From assembly GCA_002742935.1 (NCBI GenBank), contig PDON01000065.1, positions 6,894 through 70,893 on the forward strand: a DNA stretch of 64,000 nt, read 5' to 3'. Every line of letters begins with the position of its first letter. The first letter of the stretch is position 1. The translations under genes were made by a program, and so were the position numbers. Positions 56,266 through 64,000 of this stretch are shown piece after piece. The notes beneath the pieces were generated by a model. That model was not told where the DNA came from, made no database searches, and worked only from the letters and a program-made list of their open reading frames with translations. The DNA is from Candidatus Cloacimonadota bacterium (GTDB taxonomy: Bacteria; UBA4055).

Positions 56266-58044
56266 TTAAGATAAAGGTCTCGTTTTCTCCTCTAACCAAA
56301 TCTTCTCCTCTTCATTCAGATACGGAGAAACAAGATCAAACACACTCTTATGATATGAATCTATCCAATCAATCTGATCCTTACTTAAAAGAGAAGTATC
56401 CACAAGATCTCTTTCAATTGGAACCTTTGTCAATGTTTCAAATGAGAAAAATTTAATACCCTCATTTGTTTTCTCCTCTTTAACCACTATAAGATTTTCT
56501 ATCCTTATTCCATGACTATTGGCTAAATATCTACCCGGCTCATTAGAAACAATCATACCTTTTTCAAGTGAAACAGCCTTAGGAAAAGGACTTATATTTT
56601 GAGGACCTTCATGTACATTTAGAAAATGACCAACACCGTGACCCGTTCCATGACCATAGTTTAGGAAATAATCCCAAAGTGGTTTTCTTGCCAATATATC
56701 AAGCTGATAACCTTTTGTTCCTTCAGGAAATTTAACTTTAGAAAGTTCAACCATTCCTTTGAGGACTAAAGTATAATCCCTAATCTCCTCATTAGTTGGT
56801 TTTCCTATAGCTGCAACCCTTGTAATATCGGTAGTACCCTCAAAATATTGACCTCCAGAATCTATTAGATATAAACCATCCCCGGAAATTTTTCTATCAC
56901 TCTTCTCATCAACTCTGTAATGAATAATAGCACCGTTACCCTTAAATCCGGAAATAGCGGGGAAACTATCTTGAACATAGTTTTCCATAGATGCTCTAAA
57001 AGCAGTTAACTTATCAGAAGCGGAAAGTTCACTTATTTCTCCAGAACCAACATTTTTATAGATCCAGTGAAGAAATTTAACAACAGCAGCTCCATCTTTA
57101 ATGTGGGCAACTCTCATACCCTCAACTTCAACGCTATTCTTTTTAGCTTTCATAAGAGTTGAAGGGTTTGGAAGATTTACAATATCAGAAACAGTTTCAA
57201 GAGCTCTGTAGATAGAATAGTTTATTCTGTTAAAATCAATAACTACTTTAGATTTTTTTACTAAGGATTTAACTACTTCACCTGTGGTGTTATAACTTTC
57301 AATATCTACACCACTCTTTTTTAAACTACTCTTCACATCTTCGGGAATCTTTTCAGGGTTAACAAACAAAGTTACCTTTTCCATACCAATGAGAAGATAG
57401 GAGATAAAACAAGGATTGTAACTTATATCGCTTCCTCTTAAATTCAATATCCATGCAATATCATCTAGAGTTGAAATGAAGTTATAATCACCTTTTCCCT
57501 TAATACTCTCTCTAATTCTATCTATTTTACTTTCTCTGGATTCTCCTGAAAATTTAACATCAAGTTCAAAAACTTTATCCATTGGAACTGTAGGCCTATC
57601 ACTCCAAACTGTTTCAGCAAGATCATATTCTGCTACAACTTCAATCTTTTTAGTTAAAAACTTGCTTACCATTCCTTTAACAATACCGTAAGAAACAACA
57701 TAACCATCTAAACCAAACTTTGACCCCTCTTCAAGATTCTCATAAACCCAATCATTTATGGAAGGAACACCAGCTTCTCCCATTTTAAAAAGATCTATAC
57801 CGGAACCTTTAAGCTCCTCTTCTGCTTGTAAAAAGTATCTGCCATCAGTCCACAATCCAGCTTTATCAGCTAAAACAACTACAGTTCCTGCTGAACCTGT
57901 AAAACCTGAAATATAAGATCTAAAACTCCATCTCTCTGCAACATATTCAGAATCGTGAGGATCTGTTGATGGAATAAAATAACCATCAAGACCCTTTAAT
58001 TTCATCTCTTCTCTAATCTTTGCTACTCTTTTCTTTATATCCAT
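56266..58044 (-). CDS. Xaa-Pro aminopeptidase (M24B, aminopeptidase P-like with N-terminal creatinase-like domains). The ORF-track start at 58206 gives an unlikely 54-aa extension, so the Met at 58044 is preferred.
   Basis: Pita-bread fold metal ligands: D...D, HGTGHGVGHFLNVHE, E...E. A long N-terminal double domain as in the 3-domain APP family. Confidence 0.8.
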   Translation of the reverse strand: MDIKKRVAKIREEMKLKGLDGYFIPSTDPHDSEYVAERWSFRSYISGFTGSAGTVVVLADKAGLWTDGRYFLQAEEELKGSGIDLFKMGEAGVPSINDWVYENLEEGSKFGLDGYVVSYGIVKGMVSKFLTKKIEVVAEYDLAETVWSDRPTVPMDKVFELDVKFSGESRESKIDRIRESIKGKGDYNFISTLDDIAWILNLRGSDISYNPCFISYLLIGMEKVTLFVNPEKIPEDVKSSLKKSGVDIESYNTTGEVVKSLVKKSKVVIDFNRINYSIYRALETVSDIVNLPNPSTLMKAKKNSVEVEGMRVAHIKDGAAVVKFLHWIYKNVGSGEISELSASDKLTAFRASMENYVQDSFPAISGFKGNGAIIHYRVDEKSDRKISGDGLYLIDSGGQYFEGTTDITRVAAIGKPTNEEIRDYTLVLKGMVELSKVKFPEGTKGYQLDILARKPLWDYFLNYGHGTGHGVGHFLNVHEGPQNISPFPKAVSLEKGMIVSNEPGRYLANSHGIRIENLIVVKEEKTNEGIKFFSFETLTKVPIERDLVDTSLLSKDQIDWIDSYHKSVFDLVSPYLNEEEKIWLEEKTRPLS

Positions 58045-58533
58045 CTTTATCCCTCTAATTTTATTTAATTTAGTAATTGAAATATTAACTAAAAAACTCA
58101 TATGAAAATATGATAGATATTTTAATCTAGTCTTAAATATAGTTAAACTAATTAGGAGTTTCAAGTAAATAGACTTGACAGATTTAGGGAACTTAACACT
58201 AAACAATTTTACTCCAATTATATTGAATTAGAGAAAATAGATTAGGGTTTAGAACTTTATTCTTCTGTAGATAGTCTACATATTTCATGAGGCTTTAAAA
58301 TTTGGTATAATTTTTGAAAAATTATTGCTCAATGATAAAGAGTTCTGATATTATCTACAAAACACCGTGCTTTTCATCATTCTCTTCATGTTGTTTTCCC
58401 ACTTTATCCAATAGTGGCTTTGTAAACTTTTTTAGAATATTATTTTTGGGAATACCTACAACACAATTAATATTATTTCTTTACACATCAACTAAGAATA
58501 TCCTTTCTGGTTTCGTAATTGGAACCTCAACAA

Positions 58534-59889
58534 CTATTCTATTATTTTTAAATATTTTTGAGACATTTTTTGATGCTCTGGAGATTTTAAATAGGATTCT
58601 ATAACAGGTTTAACTTTCGCTAATTTTTTTAGATTATGGTATTTGTGATAAAATCTGGCTAAATGACAAGTTGAAAGCAAATAATTTCTTTCGTCAGCTA
58701 TTTGTCTAAACAAAAGCCTGGCTCTTAAAAAAGATTTTTCTGATTTTCTATGTTCTCCTGCAATATTTAAATAAGAAAGTCCCCTAACTAATTCAATCTT
58801 AGCTTTTTGATAGTTATTTTCTTTAGTATATTTTTCAGCTTTTTCTAAATATTCGGTTGCATTTGTGTACTCTCTTAATCCATTATAACACATTGCAATA
58901 TTTAAGCATACTTTACCATATTCATCATCCTTTTCCTTTTCAAATTTAAGTGATTTTTTGAAAGATTCTATGCCCTTTTGATACTTTTTAACTCTAGAGT
59001 TAGAAACTCCTAATGTTACTAAGATTTGAACTTTAATTTTAGGATTAGAGGTAGTTGTTAATTGATTTTTAAGCTCATTAATAGTTAATTCGTGATGTTT
59101 TCCCTTTAATTCTAAAGACCTACAAGCACCCTTTATAAATTCAAGGGTAAAACCATTATTACTTGTTTTTTCAAATGTCTCATAAGCTTTATGGTAGCTC
59201 TTTTCTGCTTCTTCTTTTTGGTTGTTAAATTTAAAACAATCTCCAAGATGATAATAAATTTCTCCCTCTATAAAGGAGATTTTACTCTTTAATTTTTCTA
59301 AATATCTTTCTTTTCTTTTTAATATTTTCTTGCCTACTTCAATAGCTTTACTAAAAAGACCCTTATCTCTAAATATGCGGAAAAAAGAATAAATTATTTC
59401 ATAGTAGTTAGGATGTTCTTTATTTTTCGCGAATTTCTGATACTCTTCTAATAATACTTCCTCTTCTTGCTTTTCATATTCTTCAAAATTTTCTAATGAA
59501 GGGAATTCAAAATGCTTATTATTGGTAAGTTTTGCCTTTTTTAGATAGTAGTAAATTGTACCTGCTGTAACTTTGCGACCTAAATTAGTGATAATTTCTT
59601 TGTATGAAATATGCTTATTTTCTTTTTTAAGCTTAACAATTTTTCTCTTTTCTCTATAGCTTAATTTATGTCTTATTTTAAAAGATTCCGGGATTTTTCT
59701 TTGATAAGGTTCTTTTTTATTATTTCTCTCTTTTAGCCAACGATAAATAGAGTTTCTAGAAAAACTATAGGTTGTTGCTAGCATTGAAACGCTAAATCCC
59801 TTGTCATATTCTGCCAAAATTTCGTTTTTAAGTTTTATTGCAACTGTCATGTTGATAGCCTTTTTTATATTGTTTTTTGACTGCCCCAA
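58534..59889 (-). CDS. Putative transcriptional regulator: paired N-terminal HTH motifs plus a TPR repeat array.
   Basis: The N-terminal ~120 aa carry two HTH-like segments (…SRNSIYRWLKE… and …ISYKEIITNLGRKVTAGTIYYYLKK…). Tandem TPR-like repeats follow. Divergent from the small secreted peptide gene. Confidence 0.5.
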   Translation of the reverse strand: MGQSKNNIKKAINMTVAIKLKNEILAEYDKGFSVSMLATTYSFSRNSIYRWLKERNNKKEPYQRKIPESFKIRHKLSYREKRKIVKLKKENKHISYKEIITNLGRKVTAGTIYYYLKKAKLTNNKHFEFPSLENFEEYEKQEEEVLLEEYQKFAKNKEHPNYYEIIYSFFRIFRDKGLFSKAIEVGKKILKRKERYLEKLKSKISFIEGEIYYHLGDCFKFNNQKEEAEKSYHKAYETFEKTSNNGFTLEFIKGACRSLELKGKHHELTINELKNQLTTTSNPKIKVQILVTLGVSNSRVKKYQKGIESFKKSLKFEKEKDDEYGKVCLNIAMCYNGLREYTNATEYLEKAEKYTKENNYQKAKIELVRGLSYLNIAGEHRKSEKSFLRARLLFRQIADERNYLLSTCHLARFYHKYHNLKKLAKVKPVIESYLKSPEHQKMSQKYLKIIE

Positions 59890-59976
59890 AACTAGTATTG
59901 ACTCGTTTTTATTTCTTTTGAATAACTTTTACACTCCTTTTGTGAAAACATCTTAAATTTTAAAAAGGAGAATCTT

Positions 59977-60183
59977 ATGCAGAAGAAACTAACAATTCTG
60001 ATTCTAATTCTTTCAGCTTTATTAACTACTCTCAAGGCTGAAAACCTATGTTCAAATTTGCAAAACCAACCTACAATTGAGAAGTCTGACATTATTTCTT
60101 TAGCTACCCAAAAAGGGGGTCGTACAGGAGATGATAGCGATGACCCCATTGATAACGACCTTGATTTTGACAACTACAAGTAG
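59977..60183 (+). CDS. Small secreted protein or propeptide (68 aa) with an acidic C-terminal tail.
   Basis: AGGAG RBS 7 nt upstream. Signal peptide MQKKLTILILILSALLTTLKA. Supersedes the overlapping antisense ORF 59892..60173. Confidence 0.45.
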   Translation: MQKKLTILILILSALLTTLKAENLCSNLQNQPTIEKSDIISLATQKGGRTGDDSDDPIDNDLDFDNYK

Positions 60184-60728
60184 TTATTTTGTAACATTCT
60201 CATAAAATTAAGAACAATAACTAGGAGTGGCTCCATCACTATATCTATTATAATATATAAATTATAAGTGTAGTTTTATAGGGAAACACTCTTAGTTTCG
60301 TTTATAATTCCCATCTATTTCAAACATATAATTTATCTAAATAATAAAGTTTACAAATTTGTTTATTTTGTCATCTTTTGCATTATAATAAAAAACATTG
60401 GGAAAGTCAACTCTAAAATTGTGGTGTTTTATTTGGATTTATTTGACAATTTACTAATAATTAGCAAGTTAGCTGTAAATATCTTAAATATGGCTTAATT
60501 ATTTCTTTAAGAATTAACTTTTTCTTTATCTATGTAGCTTAACTTACTTTAGATTAAGTAGTTAACCATATAAACTTCTTATACCTTCGTGTCCTAAAAC
60601 TAGAACTAACTCGTTTTGGGAGCTAAAATCTATTTGTTATCCTAAAAACAGAGCTTATGAGTCGCGACCAATTAAAAGCTTCGAAGTAAATTAAGTTTAA
60701 TTAAAACTCCTAAAAGGAGGTGAAAAGA

Positions 60729-60863
60729 ATGAAAGTTGAAAAGAAAGCACAAAGGAGTTTAAAAATGAGTAGCAATTCTAACTTGATGCATGGATTTTTT
60801 GGTCTGTATCAATGCGATTTTGATCTCAGAATTTGCTGTAATGGTTGTAGTTGTACTACTTAA
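60729..60863 (+). CDS. Cys-rich micro-ORF (44 aa, or 32 aa from the alternative start at 60765). Candidate RiPP precursor peptide.
   Basis: GGAGG at 60716-60720, 8 nt before the ATG, and a second AGGAG before the internal ATG at 60765. Translation MKVEKKAQRSLKMSSNSNLMHGFFGLYQCDFDLRICCNGCSCTT*. Sits 167 nt upstream of the radical SAM/SPASM gene and is followed by a hairpin. Confidence 0.5.
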   Translation: MKVEKKAQRSLKMSSNSNLMHGFFGLYQCDFDLRICCNGCSCTT

Positions 60864-61029
60864 TAGTGCCTTTGTACACTATCAATGAGGCTACTCCTTT
60901 GGGATAGCCTCATTATGATCGTTGCACAATAGATTCTTTAAGAAAAAAAAGAATCTTCAAATCATTATTTCAACTATAAATTCATTTTCATGTTAACTGT
61001 AATCTTAAAGTTTAATCGGAGATTTTACA

Positions 61030-62349
61030 ATGAAGTATAAACAGAGTTTTTATAATATATGGCAAGCTCAAAAAGAAAAAGTTTATCTACTAAATACTTA
61101 TTCGGGGAGTATTGTTTCTGTAAATAAAAATGAAATTGGGGTTGTAAACTCAATTCTTGAAGATAAAAATGATATAGATATTGTAAATGAAGAAAAAATA
61201 AAAGAATACATAAAGGTCTTACTTGATAACGGTTTTTTAATTCCTGAAGAGGTTAACGAAAGAGATAGTTTGCAATATATTTATAAATTAAACTATTTTG
61301 ACTCTTCAGTTCTTGATATTGTTCTACTTCCAACAATGAGATGTAATTTTAAATGTCCATATTGCTACGAAGAAGAAAAACAAATGACTTTAACTGAAGA
61401 AAGATTACAATCTTTAATAAAGTTTGCAGAAAAAAATTTTATAAATAAAAATCGAGTAACAATTGGTTTATTTGGAGGAGAACCATTATTAGAATGGAAA
61501 AAAATTAAGAAATTTTTTGATATCGTTTTAAACTTGTCAAAGAAATATGGTTTTATGTTCGCCCCGTCAATAACAACAAATGCTTATTTGTTTGAAAAAG
61601 ATATGATTAACGATATGATTGATAAATATCATTTCAGGTCATTTCAAATATCAATTGATGGATATAAAACGACCCATAATACAACACGAGTGCTAATAGA
61701 GAATGGCAAGGGAACTTATGAAACTGTTCTAAAAAATTTTAAACTTCTTTTAGAAAAGAAGAAACAATCAAAAAAAAATTACAGCTTAACATTAAGAGTT
61801 AATCTTATGAACACAGATGAAAAAAGCATACTAAAACTCTTTAATGAATTTGACTACAATGAAAAAGAACTGTTTTATATTTATTTTAGACCTATTTACA
61901 ATACGAAAAATTTTTGTATTTCAAATTCCAATTATAAAAATTTAGAATCATTTTATTCTTTAGCTATCAAAGAAGGATTTAATGTCGTAACTCCAGGGTC
62001 TAATAGTTTCACTAGCATTCAAGCATGTGAAGGAGACGGTGGAATACACCAAATAGAGATTATGCCTAACCTTTCAATTTGGAAATGCTCAAATAATTTA
62101 AATTGTAAAGAAGCAAATATCGGGGAAATCTGTAATGATGGTAATATTAAATTATTTTATGATAGACTGGAAAAATGGAGTAAAAACAATCCTTTTGAAT
62201 ACGAGAAATGCTCAAATTGTAAGTATCTTCCACTATGTTGGGGAAGCTGTCCATTAAACTTTCTTCTTAATAAGAAAAGAAATTGTTTTTACGAAAAAGA
62301 TTTCAATTTAGTTAATTTATTCTTAAATTCTAGAATTGGAGCTTCATAG
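61030..62349 (+). CDS. Radical SAM/SPASM-domain peptide maturase with an N-terminal PqqD-like RRE (sactipeptide/ranthipeptide-type RiPP maturase).
   Basis: CNFKCPYC (CxxxCxxC) radical SAM cluster. C-terminal SPASM Cys pattern CEGDGG...CSN...CSNCKYLPLCWGSCP. N-terminal ~90 aa winged-helix-like segment before the rSAM core. Confidence 0.8.
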   Translation: MKYKQSFYNIWQAQKEKVYLLNTYSGSIVSVNKNEIGVVNSILEDKNDIDIVNEEKIKEYIKVLLDNGFLIPEEVNERDSLQYIYKLNYFDSSVLDIVLLPTMRCNFKCPYCYEEEKQMTLTEERLQSLIKFAEKNFINKNRVTIGLFGGEPLLEWKKIKKFFDIVLNLSKKYGFMFAPSITTNAYLFEKDMINDMIDKYHFRSFQISIDGYKTTHNTTRVLIENGKGTYETVLKNFKLLLEKKKQSKKNYSLTLRVNLMNTDEKSILKLFNEFDYNEKELFYIYFRPIYNTKNFCISNSNYKNLESFYSLAIKEGFNVVTPGSNSFTSIQACEGDGGIHQIEIMPNLSIWKCSNNLNCKEANIGEICNDGNIKLFYDRLEKWSKNNPFEYEKCSNCKYLPLCWGSCPLNFLLNKKRNCFYEKDFNLVNLFLNSRIGAS

Positions 62350-62450
62350 CTTTTGATCCTTTAAGTTTTGAATATCAGATTTTTTATATTTATATTTTGA
62401 TATAAATATAAATATTTTAAAATTAAGTTTAAATATTAAGGAGTTAAAAA

Positions 62451-64000
62451 ATGAAATCATTGCTAAAGTTTTTTAAATTGTTACCTCTCAAGTATATTAT
62501 CAGCTATTTTATCATAGGGGTTATATTTTCAGTTGTTTTTGTGTTAGAATACTTTAGCCCTTTAATTCAAAAAAATTTGATTGATACTGCAATTAGAGAT
62601 AAGAATATTTTTAATGACTCCTTGTTTCATTTGATTTATCTTTATATACTTTATGCCATTTTTGTTTTTACAGCCACGCTCTCTATTTCCTTTTTGAGAA
62701 TAAAAGTTGGTAAATTGTTTTATTCTGTTTTTTTAAAAAAGATTTTCAGCTTAAAAAAGACTGCTATTCAGAAAAAAGGAACCGGATACTACTATGATAT
62801 TTTATCAAAGGATAAAGAGTCTGCTGTAGCATTGATAAGTTTGTCTTTTTTCTCTCTACTATTTAGTATCATTCAAACTTGCTTTATTTTAGTAATGATT
62901 TGGAAGTGGAGTCGTATTCTTTTTATAATTTTTATGATAGTTCTATTTTCATCTATAATTATAACATCTATTCTAGCTTTGTTTAATAGAAATAATTACC
63001 TAAATATGAGAAAAAACGGTACAACTTTAGCAAATGAGACAATAGATGCTATTTCAAACAATTTTTCAATCCAAAATTTTCTATCATCTAGTATTTTTCA
63101 AAATTTATTAACAAAAAAATATGCCTTTTTTGAGAAGTATATGAGAAGATACATTTACATTGCTACTTCCCCTCAAATAATTGTTTCAATTATTAAGACG
63201 GTTGCATTTGTATTTACCATAGTTTATTCTTTAAATCTGGTTATATCCGGAGAAATGACTTACGGTATTCTACTGGCTATAATCTCATATTTCCAAATGA
63301 TTTTGAAACCAATAGAAAATTTTCATTCAGTAATGAACAACATTGCAGAAAGTGAAGTAAGTATCAAAAGGTTACTTAATTTAATAAATCCTAAAACTAA
63401 TCAATTAAATTATCAAGATAAAGTTATACCTTTGAACAGTATAAATAATCTTACCTTTAAAGATGTTTATTTTGAATACGGAAATTCTAAAAAACAAAAA
63501 CATTATCTTGATTTTAAAATTGAAGATGAAAAAGTTGGAATTGTTGGAATTTCAGGAGAAGGTAAAACTACCTTATTAAAATTATTGTACTTGGAAGAGG
63601 TTGCAAAAGAGGGGAATATTTTTTTAGATGATACAATCTTGGGTAATCTTCCAATCTCTTACTTTCAAGCTATTTTTAATATTTACCCTCAAAATTTAGA
63701 AATTTTTAATAAAGACTTACTCTTTAATTTAACTCTAGGAAAAAAAGTAATACCAAATTCAACTGTGGATAGATATCTAAAAGATTATCAAAACAGATTA
63801 CAACTTTTCTTTGATTATCTTGAAAAAGAACTTCAAAACAGTAATATTTCAAATTCAAAAAAATTTATCAAAATACAAAAATATTTAGAGAAAGATGATT
63901 TTTTAAAGGAAATTTTAGGAGTTATTGATGTTTATGTAGAATCCTATCACATTTATGAAATTAACTTTGATACTTACATTAAATACCTTGATTTTATTGT
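62451..64000 (+). CDS. ABC transporter, fused permease plus ATPase. The 3' end lies beyond the window (partial).
   Basis: AAGGAG RBS 7 nt upstream. Six-TM region, then Walker A GISGEGKTT. Open to the window edge and not in the ORF track because it has no stop. Confidence 0.6.
   Translation, partial: MKSLLKFFKLLPLKYIISYFIIGVIFSVVFVLEYFSPLIQKNLIDTAIRDKNIFNDSLFHLIYLYILYAIFVFTATLSISFLRIKVGKLFYSVFLKKIFSLKKTAIQKKGTGYYYDILSKDKESAVALISLSFFSLLFSIIQTCFILVMIWKWSRILFIIFMIVLFSSIIITSILALFNRNNYLNMRKNGTTLANETIDAISNNFSIQNFLSSSIFQNLLTKKYAFFEKYMRRYIYIATSPQIIVSIIKTVAFVFTIVYSLNLVISGEMTYGILLAIISYFQMILKPIENFHSVMNNIAESEVSIKRLLNLINPKTNQLNYQDKVIPLNSINNLTFKDVYFEYGNSKKQKHYLDFKIEDEKVGIVGISGEGKTTLLKLLYLEEVAKEGNIFLDDTILGNLPISYFQAIFNIYPQNLEIFNKDLLFNLTLGKKVIPNSTVDRYLKDYQNRLQLFFDYLEKELQNSNISNSKKFIKIQKYLEKDDFLKEILGVIDVYVESYHIYEINFDTYIKYLDFI

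Follow-up and report, generated by a model that had tools for sequence, protein, structure and literature searches.

A short cysteine-rich reading frame beside a radical SAM/SPASM gene of a Candidatus Cloacimonadota bacterium is probably an uncalled RiPP precursor gene

Does a 44-codon open reading frame (ORF) that no pipeline has called, lying just upstream of a radical S-adenosylmethionine (rSAM)/SPASM gene, encode a peptide, and what would become of that peptide? We addressed this question for positions 60729-60863 (+ strand) of a 64,000-nucleotide stretch of DNA from a Candidatus Cloacimonadota bacterium (contig PDON01000065.1), hereafter the window, which has a G+C content of 30.8%. A first-pass annotation made from the letters of the window had described the ORF as Cys-rich and unannotated, had given it two possible starts, and had suggested that it represents a distinct ranthipeptide-like class of precursor. 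Our analysis indicates that the ORF is very probably a genuine precursor ('A') gene of a peptide that is ribosomally synthesized and then modified post-translationally (RiPP), whose product is modified by the adjoining rSAM/SPASM enzyme.

From the ATG at 60729, 44 sense codons extend to 60860 and are followed by a TAA (60861-60863) and then an in-frame TAG. The predicted product is MKVEKKAQRSLKMSSNSNLMHGFFGLYQCDFDLRICCNGCSCTT, and the local sequence around the ORF is ...ctaAAGGAGGTGAaaagaATGAAAGTT.... An extended Shine-Dalgarno (SD) sequence of 10 nt, AAGGAGGTGA (60714-60723, + strand), is a full complement of the anti-SD, and 8 nt separate its GGAGG core (60716-60720) from the ATG. The automatic ORF listing begins this frame at a GTG (60720), giving 47 residues; this start is implausible because the codon sits within the SD. 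The last 18 residues, YQCDFDLRICCNGCSCTT, contain five Cys, the spacing in the core is C-6-CC-2-C-1-C, and the peptide contains the segment GFFGLY. We place the leader at approximately residues 1-26 (60729-60806), including the N-terminal MKVEKKA and the F-G-x-x-G junction, and the Cys-rich core, QCDFDLRICCNGCSCTT, at approximately residues 27-44 (60807-60860), with a predicted boundary between the two. The length of the ORF, both SD-like sequences and their spacings (the second is discussed below), the Cys count and the GFFGLY segment were all as the first-pass annotation had given them.

The gene that begins 166 nt downstream of the ORF (61030-62349, + strand) encodes a 439-aa protein, with the same sequence as a 'hypothetical protein' from a Candidatus Cloacimonadota metagenome-assembled genome (MAG), that we identified from its motifs, its NCBIfam and Pfam matches and its modeled structure as an rSAM/SPASM peptide maturase. 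The radical SAM motif, C105-N-F-K-C109-P-Y-C112 (CxxxCxxC), is invariant in 27 of 27 members of the enzyme's clade. Seven conserved Cys are found toward the C-terminus (333, 353, 394, 397, 403, 407 and 419); C333, C353 and the block C394-x2-C397-x5-C403-x3-C407 are invariant in the 27-member clade, C419 is at least 90% conserved, and the Cx2Cx5Cx3C block aligns with that of CteB. The Pfam Radical_SAM model matched with 56 bits (cut-off 29.5) and Fer4_12 was also matched; the Pfam SPASM model did not match the protein, despite the presence of the seven-Cys SPASM pattern. The only NCBIfam models to which the protein aligned along its full length were those of rSAM/SPASM RiPP maturases. The nearest curated relatives were TIGR04463 (189.4 bits, cut-off 525), CefB (NF038107; 163.8 bits, cut-off 600) and Clo7bot (TIGR04334; 158 bits, cut-off 600), followed by FlmE/OhkG (115 bits), PapB (105 bits) and ScfB (69.2 bits). 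Because no curated cut-off was reached, function is transferred here from distant relatives, with 17-18% identity to CteB.

CteB was the sole match of the maturase among PDB sequences (E = 2.7e-10, residues 20-421). An AlphaFold2 (AF2) model computed from the 27-sequence alignment (predicted local distance difference test (pLDDT) 88.4, predicted template modeling score (pTM) 0.87) returned CteB first in a Foldseek search, over its full length and including the RiPP recognition element (RRE; E = 7e-19, template modeling score 0.64-0.68, 452 columns), with anSME, TigE, SuiB, ChlB and SkfB as runners-up. The N-terminus (~1-90) was modeled as three strands (E9-14, E17-22, E27-31) followed by three helices (H33-43, H54-66, H77-90) with pLDDT values of 74-94, and this succession of strands and helices, typical of a winged helix-turn-helix, predicts an RRE-type module. 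At the level of the superfamily the enzyme is an rSAM/SPASM RiPP maturase, which supports the proposed coupling of a Cys-rich, precursor-type small ORF to a gene of this kind.

Conservation of the peptide in orthologous loci had been set beforehand as the test of the ORF. We compared the DNA surrounding 26 relatives of the 439-aa maturase (34-50% identity) and found that its closest homologues (43-50% identity, in four independent loci) are all accompanied by a homologous precursor in the same position, strand and order. The P0002 locus (maturase 50% identical) encodes MEVLKKANRTIATPNDTPLFGILGFSCDFFCGCRIYCPPPSA and a tandem paralogue, with the consensus MEVLKKA[NK]RTIATPND.PLFGILG..C.FFC.CRIYCPPPSA. 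The precursors of the P0006 and P0109 loci, MEVLKSGLRSMDDWSSITFGLDGSGELDRFCDCTCPTIPPPSR and MEVIKSGLRTMDDWSTIEFGLDGSGELDRFCDCTCPAPKPPDA, have the common pattern MEV[LI]KSGLR.MDDWS.I.FGLDGSGELDRFCDCTCP..., the P0004 peptide reads MKVLKKAERKL...CNTNGCKCGC, and the P0007 peptide reads MKILKSG...CGGPCFGVGCGGGC. Positions M1, V3, K5, R9, G22, G25, C36 and C40 are invariant between the window peptide and its sister peptides. The GFFGLY segment, singled out earlier as a leader motif, proved to be conserved as F-G-[ILF]-x-G in the four closest peptides and probably marks the leader/core junction; it places the window peptide in a small subgroup of the family, in which the motif precedes the first core Cys.

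The same arrangement extends to more distant relatives. All 10 homologues that we looked up are adjoined, on the upstream side or just downstream, by a peptide with the same design, as are the maturases of ~15 further genome or metagenome loci with maturases of at least ~30% identity. This design consists of a leader that starts M-[KE]-[VIL]-[ILV]-[KN]-x-[AG] and a Cys-rich C-terminus. The best-conserved leader element is the N-terminal M-[KE]-V-x-K-K-A, and just two core residues, both Cys (C-x-C, 20/20), are invariant in an alignment of 20 peptides. Many of the peptides have the core LDAC[TG]CTGNC, and others have QC[GT]CTDT.C or CKGNCGC. The hosts of this wider family include Spirochaetales, Brachyspira, Treponemataceae, Muribaculaceae, Lachnospiraceae, Bacilli, Nanoarchaeota, Methanothrix and Thermoplasmatota. 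The family thus has the marks of RiPP precursors, namely a small ORF adjoining a modifying enzyme, a conserved leader and a variable core, and the genomic comparisons indicate that the precursor is obligatorily paired with this maturase clade.

Similarity between the peptides was further assessed by alignment and by codon comparison. The window peptide scored 48 and 51 in Smith-Waterman alignments with the two P0002-locus peptides, compared to 21 ± 4.4 for shuffled sequences, and 0 of 2000 shuffles reached the observed scores. When the window was divided into 1625 six-frame segments, a profile built from three sister peptides ranked the ORF first among them (E = 0.011). A broad peptide hidden Markov model with 19 members did not pick out the window ORF because the family is too divergent and its alignment was poor, whereas the three-member nearest-relative profile did. 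Between the most similar orthologues (the L165 and L177 precursors), 29 codons differ, 20 of them synonymously only and 9 nonsynonymously; within codons 19 to 36, 15 of 18 differ synonymously only and none nonsynonymously. The tandem L161 paralogues carry silent changes in the leader and replacements in the core. As judged from these comparisons, the conservation and codon pattern are the signature of a translated RiPP precursor family and point to purifying selection on the precursor in the sister loci.

The gene has gone unnoticed in public data. Because neither the exact 44-aa nor the exact 47-aa sequence was found in a collection of 15 billion proteins, and because the precursor is missing from the gene calls made on both other copies of the contig, at NCBI (PDWJ01005518.1) and in Logan, although these include a 68-aa ORF upstream of it, the description of the ORF as unannotated is correct. 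The contig is also present in the data of SRR6011892. NCBIfam and Pfam scans of the window peptide and 19 relatives placed them in no family. Within the F-G-[ILF]-x-G subgroup, searching 5.8 billion proteins by indexed words and 1.84 billion representatives exhaustively with a profile recovered only two called sister clusters. Apart from these input relatives, the searches gave only three matches, to proteins 300-1698 aa long that aligned over several stretches, and we rejected them as spurious.

Side branches of the family were also encountered. Peptides with near-identical LDAC[TG]CTGN(C/G) cores lie upstream of rSAM genes in L002, L004, L006, L007, L008, L082, L085, L086, L087, L173 and L174, and form a widespread sister family of minimal peptide and rSAM cassettes in Bacteria (Muribaculaceae, Lachnospiraceae, Treponemataceae) and also in archaea (Nanoarchaeota, Methanothrix, Thermoplasmatota); this sister family has no NCBIfam or Pfam model, and the motif gave no match in the literature. 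At the P0007 locus (L167 5711-5884 / L168 3177-3350), a second Cys-rich ORF of 57 aa, MFKVYGKKNKELLKVYNGCTIQCLNVCSSKCGVVCRAKCSSVCSPHDCHSDGCMVNN, with a Cys at about every fourth to fifth residue, lies downstream of an S41 peptidase gene. A Leptothrix ochracea MAG (L010 1510-1907) encodes two 57-aa peptides downstream of a more distant rSAM homologue; these have the family type of leader (MQVLSEG.., MEILNVG..) and CG[KDR]CGDCGKC-type repeats, and no NCBIfam model matched them.

How would the window peptide be processed? We propose that translation would begin at the ATG at 60729 from the very strong SD, and that the leader (MKVEKKA ... FGLY) would dock on the RRE-like N-terminal domain of the rSAM/SPASM enzyme. 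The enzyme would use a 5'-deoxyadenosyl radical and its SPASM auxiliary Fe-S clusters to cross-link the Cys-rich core, with an auxiliary cluster activating a Cys thiol and the radical abstracting a hydrogen from the acceptor carbon. Most probably, Cys sulfurs would be joined to carbons within the same peptide by several thioether bridges, as in sactipeptides or ranthipeptides. We hold this assignment with somewhat better than even confidence; it follows the paradigm of CteB, PapB, NxxcB and the sactisynthases. All of the following are predictions of this proposal: the contact between leader and RRE, the kind of cross-link and where it is placed, the site of leader cleavage, export, and the role of the product (an antimicrobial or a signal).

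In thioether synthases of the CteB/PapB type, an auxiliary cluster is the place where the Cys thiol is activated (PMC9389541), and the working mechanism for PapB and NxxcB combines radical hydrogen abstraction with Cys activation on the auxiliary cluster (PMC9389541; PMC9413430). In ranthipeptides an rSAM enzyme links the sulfur of a Cys by a thioether to a beta or gamma carbon, while in sactipeptides the sulfur is attached to the alpha carbon (PMC10288494). The prerequisites of a ranthipeptide are present in the window, that is, a Cys-rich core with Asp, Asn, Thr and Ser nearby and a CteB/PapB-like enzyme. A thioether of the sactipeptide type would also be compatible with the enzyme, because sactisynthases are diverse in sequence (PMC10288494).

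Comparison with curated families qualifies the suggestion of a distinct ranthipeptide-like class. The part of this suggestion that held is that no curated family matched; for Clo7bot, the window peptide gave no match to TIGR04333 (cut-off 31 bits) at E ≤ 10, while genuine Clo7bot peptides (L015 and L017) scored 58 and 43 bits and the L015 maturase scored 814 bits with TIGR04334. The part that did not hold is full distinctness, as the peptide and maturase are recognizable relatives of the Clo7bot/TIGR04463/CefB group. Clo7bot leaders (MKFIKKP.. and MKYIIKP.. in C. botulinum and Paraclostridium) resemble the MKVEKKA of the window and precede G-[YF]-C and a core rich in Cys, and in both systems precursor genes lie immediately upstream of the maturase gene. 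In contrast to the approximately seven precursor copies of Clo7bot, the window has one (the sister locus L161 has two). Its leader is ~12 residues longer and contains F-G-x-x-G, its cluster has conserved downstream ATP-binding cassette (ABC) transporter and DUF5128 genes, and its host is a Cloacimonadota MAG rather than Clostridium. The core spacing of the window peptide also differs from the CefB pattern, in which a Cys is found at every fifth position.

The Clo7bot, TIGR04463 and CefB families are all defined by bioinformatics, and the literature searched yielded no experimental work on Clo7bot/TIGR04333/TIGR04334, TIGR04463 or CefB/Cys-every-fifth; it gave nothing for the core motifs (DACTCTGN etc.) or for Cloacimonadota RiPPs, and FlmE, OhkG and CefB retrieved only unrelated acronyms. 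Functional transfer rests on CteB and PapB for this reason. PapB, the freyrasin maturase, is the best-scoring characterized maturase family (105 bits, residues 97-410) and, like NxxcB-type enzymes, makes beta-thioethers in ranthipeptides; its substrate, like the window peptide, contains multiple Cys. The window maturase nonetheless scores far below the PapB cut-off of 340 bits, the window peptide lacks the repeated Cys-x3-Asp units, and PapB lacks the long N-terminal region that is aligned in the window maturase.

Several observations weigh against a thioether-bridged RiPP precursor as the best explanation. The peptide and maturase fall below every curated family cut-off, as do all 27 clade maturases, and this clade is known from sequence alone, with its function taken from the distant comparison to CteB. 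In absolute terms, the window peptide is only modestly similar to its nearest relatives (12 bits by HMMER). TigE, SuiB and anSME are also good structural matches, and the chemistry of SPASM enzymes is diverse. The window peptide lacks the Cys-x-x-x-Asp motif of characterized ranthipeptides, the ABC transporter of the cluster has no peptidase domain and no leader protease was identified in the cluster, and the hairpin downstream of the precursor in the window has no U-tract (both elements are described below).

The alternative that best survives is that the cluster is the same but its chemistry is different, such that no Cys thioether is formed and the enzyme installs a C-C cyclophane or C-O link on F-G-x-x-G, epimerizes residues or converts Cys; in that event the cysteines would be engaged in disulfides or in metal binding. 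SPASM enzymes do catalyze many reactions, including the formation of C-C and C-O links and epimerization (PMC9389541), and the structural neighbors of the maturase include TigE, SuiB, anSME and an epimerase. Weak NCBIfam matches to the cyclophane-forming YhhB, XyeB and GrrM (43-60 bits), the conservation of F-G-[ILF]-x-G across the four closest peptides, and the lack of any recognizable known ranthipeptide acceptor motif in the peptide are consistent with this alternative. However, the sole invariant core residues of the wider family are two Cys, and only the closest subgroup has FGxxG, whereas the enzyme clade is common to the wider family. Thioether synthases give the best matches in both sequence and structure (PapB by score, CteB as the top PDB match), and the cyclophane and other models score lower. 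We consider a different chemistry unlikely, and less so than any of the alternatives that follow.

The first-pass annotation had also proposed that a second start within the ORF yields two leader lengths. An AGGAG (60753-60757) does lie 7 nt ahead of an in-frame ATG at 60765 (codon 13; the pair spans 60753-60767, + strand), and internal initiation is possible on sequence grounds; use of both ATGs would give precursors of 44 and 32 residues. This internal AGGAG is, however, merely the Arg-Ser codon pair AGG AGT, and in the AT-rich window an ATG follows by chance, at a distance of 5-10 nt, 20 of 156 AGGAG sites (~13%). An SD precedes the first Met in 9 of 9 homologous precursor genes that we compared, in most of them as an (A)AGGAG 6-8 nt away, and an internal SD with an ATG is present in none of the eight other genes (two have an internal Met but no SD). 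The short form would also lose M-[KE]-V-x-K-K-A, the most conserved element of the leader. On these four grounds, namely its restriction to the window, the Arg-Ser codons, the rate expected by chance and the loss of the conserved leader motif, we judged the second start to be a coincidence, and the use of both starts is very unlikely.

Still less probable is a chance, untranslated ORF in the 5' untranslated region of the maturase transcript. The ORF is short and called by no pipeline, no family model matches the peptide, and our promoter scan found no enrichment of promoter-like sites in the region, all of which would fit such an explanation. The scan also gave no convincing + strand promoter 5' of the ORF. 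Against it stand the position-specific amino-acid conservation with four sister loci, the synonymous-biased divergence within the family, the 10-nt SD, and the universal presence of such a peptide beside the maturase clade. In addition, only 25 strong SD and ATG pairs occur in 128 kb (both strands of the window); 12 of these start ORFs of at least 60 aa, and the precursor ORF is the longest among the remaining ones.

SCIFF peptides have six Cys in the C-terminal half and a conserved GGCGECQTSCQSACKTSC-like core. A canonical SCIFF ranthipeptide precursor with a ScfB maturase (as in CteA-CteB and Tte1186a-Tte1186) resembles the window pair in its ~45-aa peptide with a Cys-rich C-terminal half, its adjoining rSAM/SPASM enzyme with an N-terminal RRE, and the standing of CteB as the best PDB sequence and fold match, but its probability is negligible and it was excluded, as the first-pass annotation had anticipated, since the window peptide gave no match to TIGR03973 (cut-off 50 bits) at E ≤ 10 while a SCIFF-like control sequence scored 88.3 bits in the same run, the peptide has five Cys rather than six and lacks a GGCGECQTSCQSACKTSC-type motif, and the maturase, just 17-18% identical to CteB, falls far below the cut-offs of TIGR03974 (ScfB; 425 bits) and of the 'not_ScfB' model (77 bits, cut-off 855).

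Other features overlap or flank the precursor ORF. A 32-aa hydrophobic ORF, MDFLVCINAILISEFAVMVVVVLLNSAFVHYQ (60790-60888, + strand), lies in another frame across the 3' half of the precursor; it has no SD and is probably due to chance. An inverted repeat, CTCCT-AAA-AGGAG (60707-60719), overlaps the SD and was flagged on the minus strand by a terminator scan. We considered whether it forms a translational hairpin that sequesters the SD, and dropped this idea because its RNA fold is no more stable than that of shuffled sequences (z = -0.7). An Rfam scan of 59800-61200 returned nothing real, and the intergenic region around the precursor contains no meaningful repeats.

A second hairpin of 10+3 bp without a U-tract (60884-60914, + strand; -23.2 kcal/mol, z = -3.6) lies between the precursor and maturase genes. 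Hairpins are also found 3' of the precursor in L161 (z = -3.9) and in L165 (z = -4.4), where a U-tract makes it a canonical terminator. The hairpin of the window is probably a partial terminator or a transcript stabilizer that raises the ratio of precursor to enzyme; in the proposed scheme it would hold the precursor mRNA above the enzyme mRNA.

Gene order on the contig is a helix-turn-helix (HTH) and tetratricopeptide repeat (TPR) protein gene on the minus strand, the 68-aa ORF, the precursor, the rSAM/SPASM gene, an ABC exporter gene, a DUF5128 gene and an unrelated UvrD helicase gene. The exporter gene (62453-64000, + strand) encodes a transmembrane domain and a nucleotide-binding domain, and runs past the end of the window (671 aa on the full contig; L175 9541-11556). 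The exporter lacks an N-terminal C39 peptidase domain and, along its whole length, shares 41% identity with the ABC protein encoded at the corresponding position of L161. The ABC_tran model (137 positions) spans residues 358-594, which indicates an insertion of ~100 aa between the Walker A motif and the ISGGEKQK signature that is also present in the L161 homologue. The ABC gene is followed, just past the end of the window (L175 11639-12778), by a gene for a 379-aa DUF5128 six-bladed beta-propeller with a lipoprotein-like N-terminus. The co-transcribed ABC transporter would export the modified product, and the beta-propeller lipoprotein may have a part in later steps, such as removing the leader from the exported product or conferring immunity. 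The order precursor-rSAM-ABC-DUF5128 is kept in four lineages (L161, L165, L177/L178 and the window contig), and the rSAM-ABC-DUF5128 trio recurs in the P0002, P0006 and P0109 loci. More distant members of the clade form minimal pairs of peptide and rSAM genes, or are accompanied by an S41 peptidase gene.

Upstream, the HTH-TPR gene (58534-59889, - strand; 451 aa from a TTG, or 438 aa from the ATG used in public calls) is divergent from the cluster. Its product matches Pfam HTH_23 and TPR_12/TPR_8/TPR_1 and is a putative regulator; sister loci encode TPR proteins of 716-719 aa upstream that are weakly similar to it. Against PDB sequences it gave generic TPR matches only (E > 0.1), with no detectable similarity to Rgg/RRNPP proteins, and a single-sequence AF2 model was poor (pLDDT 59, pTM 0.35). 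The 68-aa ORF (59977-60183, + strand; MQKKLTILILILSALLTTLKAEN...DDSDDPIDNDLDFDNYK) lies between the HTH-TPR gene and the precursor with an AAGGAG 7 nt upstream, and its product has a signal-peptide-like N-terminus and an acidic C-terminus. No family matched it, and its membership of the system is uncertain. In the analogous place, sister loci encode a conserved 53-aa signal-peptide protein ending PPPPP(V/I)K(G/L), with no detectable homology to the 68-aa product.

The placement of the 68-aa ORF recalls that of rgg/shp beside RaS-RiPP operons. Streptococcal operons of this type (shp/rgg; streptide strABC) likewise combine a divergent regulator, a small secreted-peptide ORF, a precursor, an rSAM/SPASM gene and a transporter (PMC9389541). 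This is an analogy of layout only, for which no homology was substantiated, and the Lys-Trp chemistry of streptide is unrelated to the Cys-rich core of the window peptide. The window peptide and its three sister lineages could constitute a new RiPP family (MxVxKKA leader, F-G-x-x-G junction, Cys-rich core, rSAM/SPASM enzyme, peptidase-less ABC transporter and DUF5128 propeller lipoprotein) that has both a type or topology of cross-link unlike that of known sactipeptides and ranthipeptides and, in a non-Firmicute, RRNPP-like control by the HTH-TPR receptor and a divergently encoded, secreted 68-aa pro-peptide, in parallel to the shp/rgg control of the streptococcal operons. We regard this combined proposal as doubtful. 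The cluster (58000-64000) has a G+C content of 24-30%, mostly 25-28%, while the housekeeping genes immediately to its left have 31-36%; it may be a horizontally acquired island.

These results do not challenge the current understanding of RiPP biosynthesis, and Cys-rich precursors matured by rSAM/SPASM enzymes are already a well-known kind. What is new is an uncurated precursor and an uncharacterized maturase clade within that kind. With the precursor, a Cloacimonadota MAG gains a real gene that had not been called, and an rSAM gene annotated only as a 'hypothetical protein' is accounted for. More broadly, the enzyme defines an uncharacterized rSAM/SPASM maturase clade across Bacteria and Archaea (at least 27 enzymes, 34-50% identity) whose cognate precursors have no curated model and are mostly invisible to gene callers. 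The compact two- to four-gene cassettes in which these pairs occur are leads for genome mining of natural products.

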